A stretch of 64,000 nucleotides of DNA from Mycoavidus cysteinexigens (lineage in GTDB: Bacteria > Pseudomonadota > Gammaproteobacteria > Burkholderiales > Burkholderiaceae), in the NCBI GenBank assembly GCA_031963045.1, contig JASSUK010000042.1, forward strand, positions 1,030 to 65,029, read 5' to 3'. Numbering within the stretch: position 1 is the first letter of the stretch; every line of letters begins with the position of its first letter. The translations under genes were made by a program, and so were the position numbers. Below, piece after piece: positions 49,748 to 49,996 of the stretch. Under the pieces are notes generated by a model, which was given only the letters and a program-made list of their open reading frames with translations, made no database searches and had not been told where the DNA came from.

Positions 49748-49810
49748 ATCATAGCTTTGAGCTGCTATAGCTTTGCATAGAGCGTGCGAAATATAGTGTG
49801 ATAAAACGAA
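49748..49810 (-). promoter_or_regulatory. PIP-box-like promoter (TTCGT-N15-TTCGC, then 32 nt, then -10 TATGAT) reading toward sctU
   Basis: The plus strand shows GCGAA (49786-49790), 15 nt, ACGAA (49806-49810). On the minus strand TATGAT (49753-49748) follows a 32-nt spacer. Confidence 0.7.
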
Positions 49811-49935
49811 AAAGCGTACTTAGGGGTTTTCGTAAAAAGTTTGAGAACGGGTTACGCCTTTTGAGCTTTTGTAGATGCCCTACAAAAATTTTTTAAGGAA
49901 AACCCCTAATTTCCCTTAAAGACATCATCTATTGT

Positions 49936-49996
49936 TTCGCTCAATAACGCAGCACTTCGTATTTAAGCAGCTTGGACAATCATAGATGTTTATCCT
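49936..49996 (+). promoter_or_regulatory. PIP-box-like promoter (TTCGC-N15-TTCGT, then 30 nt, then -10 TATCCT) reading toward the hrpB1-to-sctT operon
   Basis: TTCGC (49936-49940), 15 nt, TTCGT (49956-49960), 30-nt spacer, TATCCT (49991-49996). Confidence 0.75.

Follow-up and report, generated by a model that had tools for sequence, protein, structure and literature searches.

The 363-bp intergenic region between hrcU and hrpB1 (49675-50037) in the 64-kb stretch of DNA analysed here (the window) contains two exact PIP/hrpII boxes, both pointing outward toward the operons of a Hrp2-type T3SS. The initial annotation of this DNA had described these boxes and their -10 hexamers, and its description proved correct base for base. 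The two boxes are very probably the activator sites of divergent, activator-dependent promoters under a regulator of the HrpB/HrpX type, with one more such promoter on a paralogue of hrpB1. These promoters are genuine and conserved, yet they follow the ordinary Ralstonia/Xanthomonas regulatory layout. The new part is the presence of the standard Hrp2 promoter architecture in an AT-rich endosymbiont lineage. The consensus and mechanism of such promoters have been published (PMC13436205, PMC7831014, PMC11261895), and a literature search found no publication on PIP/hrpII boxes in Mycoavidus-like bacteria.

Promoter boxes of the hrp cluster

The boxes lie at the divergent junction of a gene cluster, which reads leftward hrcU, hrcV, hpaP, hrcQ, hrcR, hrcS, an unknown gene, hrpD5, hrpD6, small genes and a second HrpB1-family gene, and rightward hrpB1, hrpB2, hrcJ, hrpB4, hrcL, hrcN, hrpB7, hrcT and hrcC. 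The presence of the Hrp2-specific set hrpB1, hrpB2, hrpB4, hrpB7, hpaP and hrpD5 around the hrcU/hrpB1 junction assigns the cluster to the Hrp2/Hrc2 group. Several of the NCBIfam matches of these genes score under the curated cut-offs, which fits a divergent lineage. The gene order is identical to that of the annotated Ralstonia solanacearum hrp cluster, and the window DNA has a GC content of ~42%.

Table 1. Promoter elements and associated genes in the window
Feature	Position	Strand	Details
PIP/hrpII box, hrpB1-operon promoter	49936-49960	+	TTCGC-N15-TTCGT = TTCGCTCAATAACGCAGCACTTCGT; sequence and exact pattern search
-10 element, hrpB1 side	49991-49996	+	TATCCT; 30-nt gap from box
PIP/hrpII box, hrcU-operon promoter	49810-49786	-	TTCGT-N15-TTCGC = TTCGTTTTATCACACTATATTTCGC
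-10 element, hrcU side	49753-49748	-	TATGAT; 32-nt gap from box
Imperfect palindrome, 106 bp	49812-49917		27-nt arms 49812-49838 / 49891-49917, 81% complementary
hrcU/sctU	48598-49674	-	TIGR01404, E 2.6e-109; first gene of leftward operon
hrpB1	50038-50634	+	TIGR02561, E 8.9e-22, and PF09613; first gene of rightward operon
Second HrpB1-family gene, 181 aa	38930-39475	-	TIGR02561, E 5e-21; far end of cluster
Third complete PIP box	39594-39570	-	TTCGT-N15-TTCGC; upstream of second HrpB1-family gene
-10 element of third box	39539-39534	-	TATCCT; 30-nt gap from box
Exact box at hrpD5	41902-41878	-	TTCGC-N15-TTCGC; overlaps hrpD5 ATG 41892-41890; TACAGT after 31 nt
Exact full PIP pattern within ORF	19801-19825	+	TAAATT after 31 nt; antisense within 603-aa ORF 18565-20376 (-)

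The published HrpX/HrpB promoter consensus is TTCGB-N15-TTCGB-N30-32-YANNNT (PMC13436205). The direct repeat TTCGB-N15-TTCGB, equivalent to TTCG-N16-TTCG, is matched exactly by the two junction boxes and by the box at 39594-39570, and each of the three is followed by a YANNNT hexamer at 30-32 nt. All three lie upstream of Hrp2-type T3SS operons and are oriented toward them (hrcU, hrpB1 and the hrpB1 paralogue), with distances from box to ATG of 112 nt for hrcU, 78 nt for hrpB1 and 95 nt for the paralogue. The junction boxes are separated by 125 bp, and transcription is predicted to start about 7 nt past the -10 hexamer of each promoter, near 50003-50005 for the hrpB1 operon. The third promoter, which was absent from the initial annotation, is kept together with the hrpB1 paralogue in the related loci L002 and L003.

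A pattern search found five copies of the bare repeat in the 64-kb window, where 1.12 were expected. When a YANNNT element at 30-32 nt is included, the count is still five, with 0.155 expected and a maximum of one across 200 second-order Markov simulations. The motif frequency in the window is therefore not that of random sequence; the initial annotation had named a random frequency across the whole genome, with no enrichment upstream of T3SS or effector genes, as an outcome that would speak against its proposal. Chance matches to a short degenerate motif could account for single sites, since the pattern at 19801-19825, antisense in an ORF, resembles a false positive, and 41878-41902 overlaps coding sequence. 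As an explanation of the junction boxes, chance is hardly credible and effectively refuted by this excess and by the position, orientation and sequence kept in six lineages and in Ralstonia. Two exact outward boxes in one T3SS intergenic region, kept in relatives, are far beyond chance.

Two of the five full patterns were set aside as promoters. The match at 19801-19825 is probably a false positive, and the 603-aa ORF that contains it is without a family match. The box at 41878-41902 overlaps the hrpD5 start codon and is identical in L001-L003 only; its promoter function is doubtful, because its second half-site forms Leu-Arg codons of HrpD5. In the M. cysteinexigens locus L008, the hrpD5 homologue is preceded by an intergenic box (16836-16859), so a promoter near hrpD5 may be ancestral.

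We also considered ordinary constitutive sigma-70 promoters, in which TATCCT and TATGAT would act alone and the TTCG repeats would be incidental or UP-element-like. The region is AT-rich and its -10 hexamers are reasonable, with TATGAT agreeing with TATAAT at five of six positions. However, a consensus scan of 49500-50200 found no sigma-70 -35/-10 pair, against 2.0 expected in shuffles, conservation peaks at the four TTCG half-sites and not at a -35, and the same repeats are present in Ralstonia at 69% GC, which makes this explanation very improbable. The lack of a -35/-10 pair in 49500-50200 fits activator-dependent promoters, with the activator just upstream of the -35 position.

For HrpB/HrpX-type activation, the arrangement suggests the following mechanism. 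An AraC-type HrpB/HrpX regulator, probably switched on by the OmpR-type protein HrpG, would bind each TTCG-N16-TTCG direct repeat at about -67 to -43 from the inferred transcription start and would bring RNA polymerase to the -10 hexamer at the correct distance, because no usable -35 is present there. The leftward promoter would transcribe hrcU-hrcV-hpaP-hrcQRS, the rightward one hrpB1-hrpB2-hrcJ-hrpB4-hrcL-hrcN-hrpB7-hrcT, and the third promoter would drive the second HrpB1 paralogue. The two core T3SS operons and the paralogue would thus form one regulon under HrpG control. With promoters that depend on an activator, the secretion apparatus would be made only with the regulatory cascade on, presumably inside, or touching, the fungal host.

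Most of the 125 bp separating the junction boxes is taken up by an imperfect palindrome with a nested perfect 8-bp hairpin (49867-49874 / 49880-49887). This palindrome is unique in the window, has a DNA fold z-score of -2.67 and is weakly recognisable in relatives. It might be an extra operator coupling or insulating both promoters, and the second hrpB1 copy, which has a PIP promoter to itself, might mark a lineage-specific change in apparatus assembly. Both would belong to an HrpG-HrpB-PIP circuit that has been kept but rewired; alternatively, HrpB could have been lost and another factor could read the boxes. We regard this pair of scenarios as unlikely.

An in-frame ATG at 50077 within hrpB1 is preceded by AAGG and a CATAAGGCA stretch kept in L002 and L003. 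The product from this codon would have 185 aa, compared with 184 aa called in L002, and ATG 50077 may be the true hrpB1 start rather than 50038.

Conservation in relatives and comparison with known systems

The orthologous loci L002-L007, from NCBI and Logan assemblies, were compared with the window. The closest HrcU proteins are 82, 75, 68, 55 and 54% identical, and the nearest named one is that of Mycoavidus cysteinexigens (49% identity; PMC5877345), which places the window in a lineage of Burkholderiaceae that is related to Mycoavidus and probably endofungal. A pattern scan found the divergent pair exact in L002, L003, L006 and L007. In L004, the hrpB1-side box is exact and the hrcU-side box imperfect (TTCAC-N15-TTCGT). 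The half-sites of the hrpB1-side box are invariant across six lineages, and its -10 element is TATCCT or TATGCT in all five relatives, always at 30 nt. On the hrcU side, the relatives have TATGAT or TATAAT at 31-32 nt. The 15-nt spacers differ among lineages, and the two boxes lie 61 to 170 bp apart.

A six-way alignment has 49 invariant columns, and 25 of them are within the 32 motif positions (4.3 expected, hypergeometric p ~5e-19). Across the entire intergenic region, conservation is highest at the four TTCG half-sites. MAFFT tends to anchor on conserved islands; the exact-match scan, which is alignment-free, gave the same outcome. The box pair is a clean phylogenetic footprint, found at the orthologous site in five relatives and in the functionally characterised species Ralstonia solanacearum. 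The half-sites and the 30-32-nt spacing have been kept while spacers and flanks diverged (HrcU identity down to 54%), which indicates ongoing purifying selection on an architecture of the HrpB type. Thus, consensus, spacing, the Hrp2 cluster and conservation together support the earlier assignment of the boxes to HrpX/HrpB-type PIP/hrpII promoters directed toward hrcU and hrpB1.

L006, L007 and L008, the last from M. cysteinexigens, share a further box, located inside the end of hpaP and ahead of hrcQ. In GCA_031963005.1 (L004/L005, 13249-21077), the cluster is broken after hpaP, and unrelated genes, including one for an 851-aa HEAT-repeat protein, replace hrcQ-hrcR-hrcS-hrpD5. The broken cluster and the imperfect hrcU-side box (TTCAC) of this genome may reflect early decay of the T3SS.

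The R. solanacearum megaplasmid (L009, 69% GC) has back-to-back TTCG-N16-TTCG boxes between hrpK/hrpB1 and sctU, one at 19852-19829 (-) facing hrpK/hrpB1 and the other at 19877-19900 (+) facing sctU, each with YANNNT 31-32 nt on. This megaplasmid has further boxes ahead of hrpY, popA and effector genes, and one ahead of sctQ, within the 3' end of sctP, which is the counterpart of the hpaP/hrcQ box in L006, L007 and L008. The window promoters resemble Ralstonia hrpII promoters in the repeat itself, in the divergent pair at the same junction and in the flanking gene order. They differ in the box-to-box distance, which is 24 bp in Ralstonia and 125 bp in the window, with the imperfect palindrome between the boxes, and in GC content (69% versus 42%). 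In Ralstonia, the hrpB gene belongs to the cluster and lies between hrcT and hrcC, in contrast to the window, where it is found neither in the cluster nor in its flanks; in a sister genome it lies ~1 Mb away. The hrpII box promoters of R. solanacearum are HrpB-dependent (Cunnac et al. 2004, as cited in PMC11261895).

In Xanthomonas campestris pv. vesicatoria, the hrpB and hrpC (hrcU) operons are divergent, with a PIP box on both. All three clean promoters of the window fit the exact consensus of Xanthomonas PIP promoters, the comparison being with the published consensus and not with Xanthomonas DNA. The PIP box promoters of Xanthomonas are HrpX-dependent (Koebnik et al. 2006, as cited in PMC7831014), and other Hrp2 clusters have been described with the consensus ahead of sctU, sctD and sctQ (PMC13436205; PMC7831014). 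Xanthomonas (hrpG, hrpX) and the sister genome are alike in having hrpG and the regulator gene adjacent and away from the cluster, but in the sister genome hrpG and hrpB are a co-oriented tandem, unlike in Xanthomonas. The hosts also differ, with a plant for Xanthomonas and, as inferred from relatives, a fungus for the window lineage.

Among Burkholderiaceae, the btl genes of endofungal Mycetohabitans, which encode TAL-like effectors, have hrpII boxes upstream (PMC11261895); the same paper cites an HrpB regulon of the Burkholderia pseudomallei T3SS2 (Lipscomb & Schell 2011, via PMC11261895). As in these cases, the motif is used here to infer co-regulation with a Hrp2-type T3SS in Burkholderiaceae, fungal endosymbionts included. 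The window lineage differs from them in being separate and much more AT-rich.

The predicted HrpB/HrpX-type regulator

Every ORF of 90 aa or longer was scanned with Pfam and NCBIfam, which revealed no AraC-family, HrpB/HrpX or HrpG gene in the 64-kb window, and tblastn with HrpB and HrpG of the sister genome gave no match there. An HrpB profile built from 17 homologues was searched against 1.84 billion representatives, revealing 119 family members at E <=1e-30. One of them, P0248, is a 476-aa HrpB homologue (E 3e-149 to the HrpB profile) encoded on the 2,444,062-bp contig JASSUJ010000001.1 of the sister genome GCA_031963405.1, which also bears the L006 T3SS cluster with its conserved box pair. 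P0248 shares 34% identity with Ralstonia HrpB over the full length (E 5e-86), rising to 58% across the 115 aa of the C-terminal DNA-binding domain and falling to 28% in the N-terminal part. Directly upstream of P0248 is the gene for a 244-aa OmpR-type protein (L094 8874-9608), whose identity with Ralstonia HrpG is 42% (E 1e-59), and this hrpG-hrpB tandem is ~1 Mb from the T3SS cluster on the same contig. The same tandem is present in a second sample, where HrpB is 73% identical to P0248.

The tandem in the sister genome and the second sample indicates that the lineage has an HrpG-HrpB cascade, encoded ~1 Mb from the secretion genes. The regulator was seen only in the clade with HrcU 54% identical to that of the window, whose own clade has HrcU identities of 68-82%. 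The expectation of the initial annotation that an HrpX/HrpB-like regulator is encoded elsewhere is thus borne out in the sister genome GCA_031963405.1 only, and the AraC-family homologue that it had suggested looking for, P0248, comes from this genome and not from the window organism, in which an equivalent regulator is predicted.

Alternatively, the boxes could be relics or be used by a different factor, HrpB having been lost from a reduced genome, with the T3SS operons constitutive or otherwise regulated. The lack of a regulator in the 64-kb window is in line with this possibility, as is the fact that the HrpB searches gave none for the window's own clade among the matches listed. In addition, endosymbiont genomes lose regulators, and M. 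cysteinexigens has only 39 (PMC5877345). However, the missing HrpB match for the window clade is not evidence of absence, because the searches did not cover the window genome. The half-sites and the exact 30-32-nt spacing have been kept while spacers and flanks diverged, and the sister clade keeps hrpG-hrpB. We consider regulator loss quite unlikely, and active promoters under an HrpB/HrpX-type regulator remain our preferred reading.

Other searches for HrpB gave various homologues. A word-indexed search with Ralstonia HrpB returned 153 matches, none of them from the relevant contigs, and an alignment-based genome scan gave no Mycoavidus-like HrpB among the best 80 of 142 relatives. HrpB homologues were found in the Mycetohabitans genomes L040, L042 and L055. 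Three HrpB-family representatives, P0323, P0335 and P0321, were picked as probably AT-rich from their amino-acid composition. P0323 and P0335 were rejected as the HrpB of the lineage because they come from a JGI metagenome contig, and P0321 because its organism is unrelated and arranges its T3SS genes differently.

In some uncultured AT-rich organisms, two HrpB-like paralogues seem to share one short contig, as judged from equal contig sizes: P0323 and P0335 (3487-bp JGI contig), and P0389 and P0322 (8608-bp Logan contig). One member of each pair is full length, and the other (P0335, P0322) extends only to the end of the first helix-turn-helix in the AraC domain. For Xylophilus, too, paired HrpB/HrpX paralogues have been reported (PMC13436205).

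Candidate effectors and additional boxes

The window contains a cluster of genes for large eukaryote-like repeat proteins (807-6575, 10047-12725, 17171-18400, 22772-27775 and 60550-61638). Two of the proteins combine WD40 with ARM-like repeats (1922 and 1667 aa), one of 892 aa is ARM-like, one of 409 aa has HEAT repeats, and an LRR protein of 362 aa is encoded next to hrcC. These are candidate host-interaction or effector proteins. No perfect PIP pattern was found ahead of the WD40, ARM, HEAT and LRR proteins of the window, so the earlier proposal that the motif marks an effector regulon is unsupported within the window. One-mismatch boxes ahead of candidate effector genes, for example at 30714-30690, were rejected, being without a properly spaced -10.

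To our knowledge, almost no secreted effectors of Mycoavidus-related endosymbionts are known. The present analysis provides a lineage-tuned motif, TTCG(Y)-N15-TTCG(B) with TATSCT or TATRAT 30-32 nt on, in which the box is often followed by ATTT on hrpB1-type promoters. This motif can be used as a seed for effector mining in complete genomes of these endosymbionts. The analysis leaves the understanding of how PIP/hrpII promoters work unchanged and extends the HrpG/HrpB-PIP logic of plant pathogens to little-studied, low-GC fungal endosymbionts related to Mycoavidus.

Another divergent TTCG-N16-TTCG pair is located in the sister genome ~5 kb from hrpG-hrpB (L094 3434-3597, GCA_031963405.1 JASSUJ010000001.1), between genes for proteins of 343 and 1224 aa of unknown function, which are possible effector genes; the -10 hexamers of this pair are not canonical. 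In the window, the third PIP box has a divergent one-mismatch box as its neighbour (GTCGC-N15-TTCGT, 39664-39688, +), which is followed by TATAGT 31 nt on. The next plus-strand ORF past this one-mismatch box (39964-40119) encodes a 51-aa glycine-rich protein (MGIGAIVGGL...), and a small ORF of 42 aa (40318-40446, -) follows hrpD6. The two products may be pilin-like, or else small Hrp proteins that are secreted.
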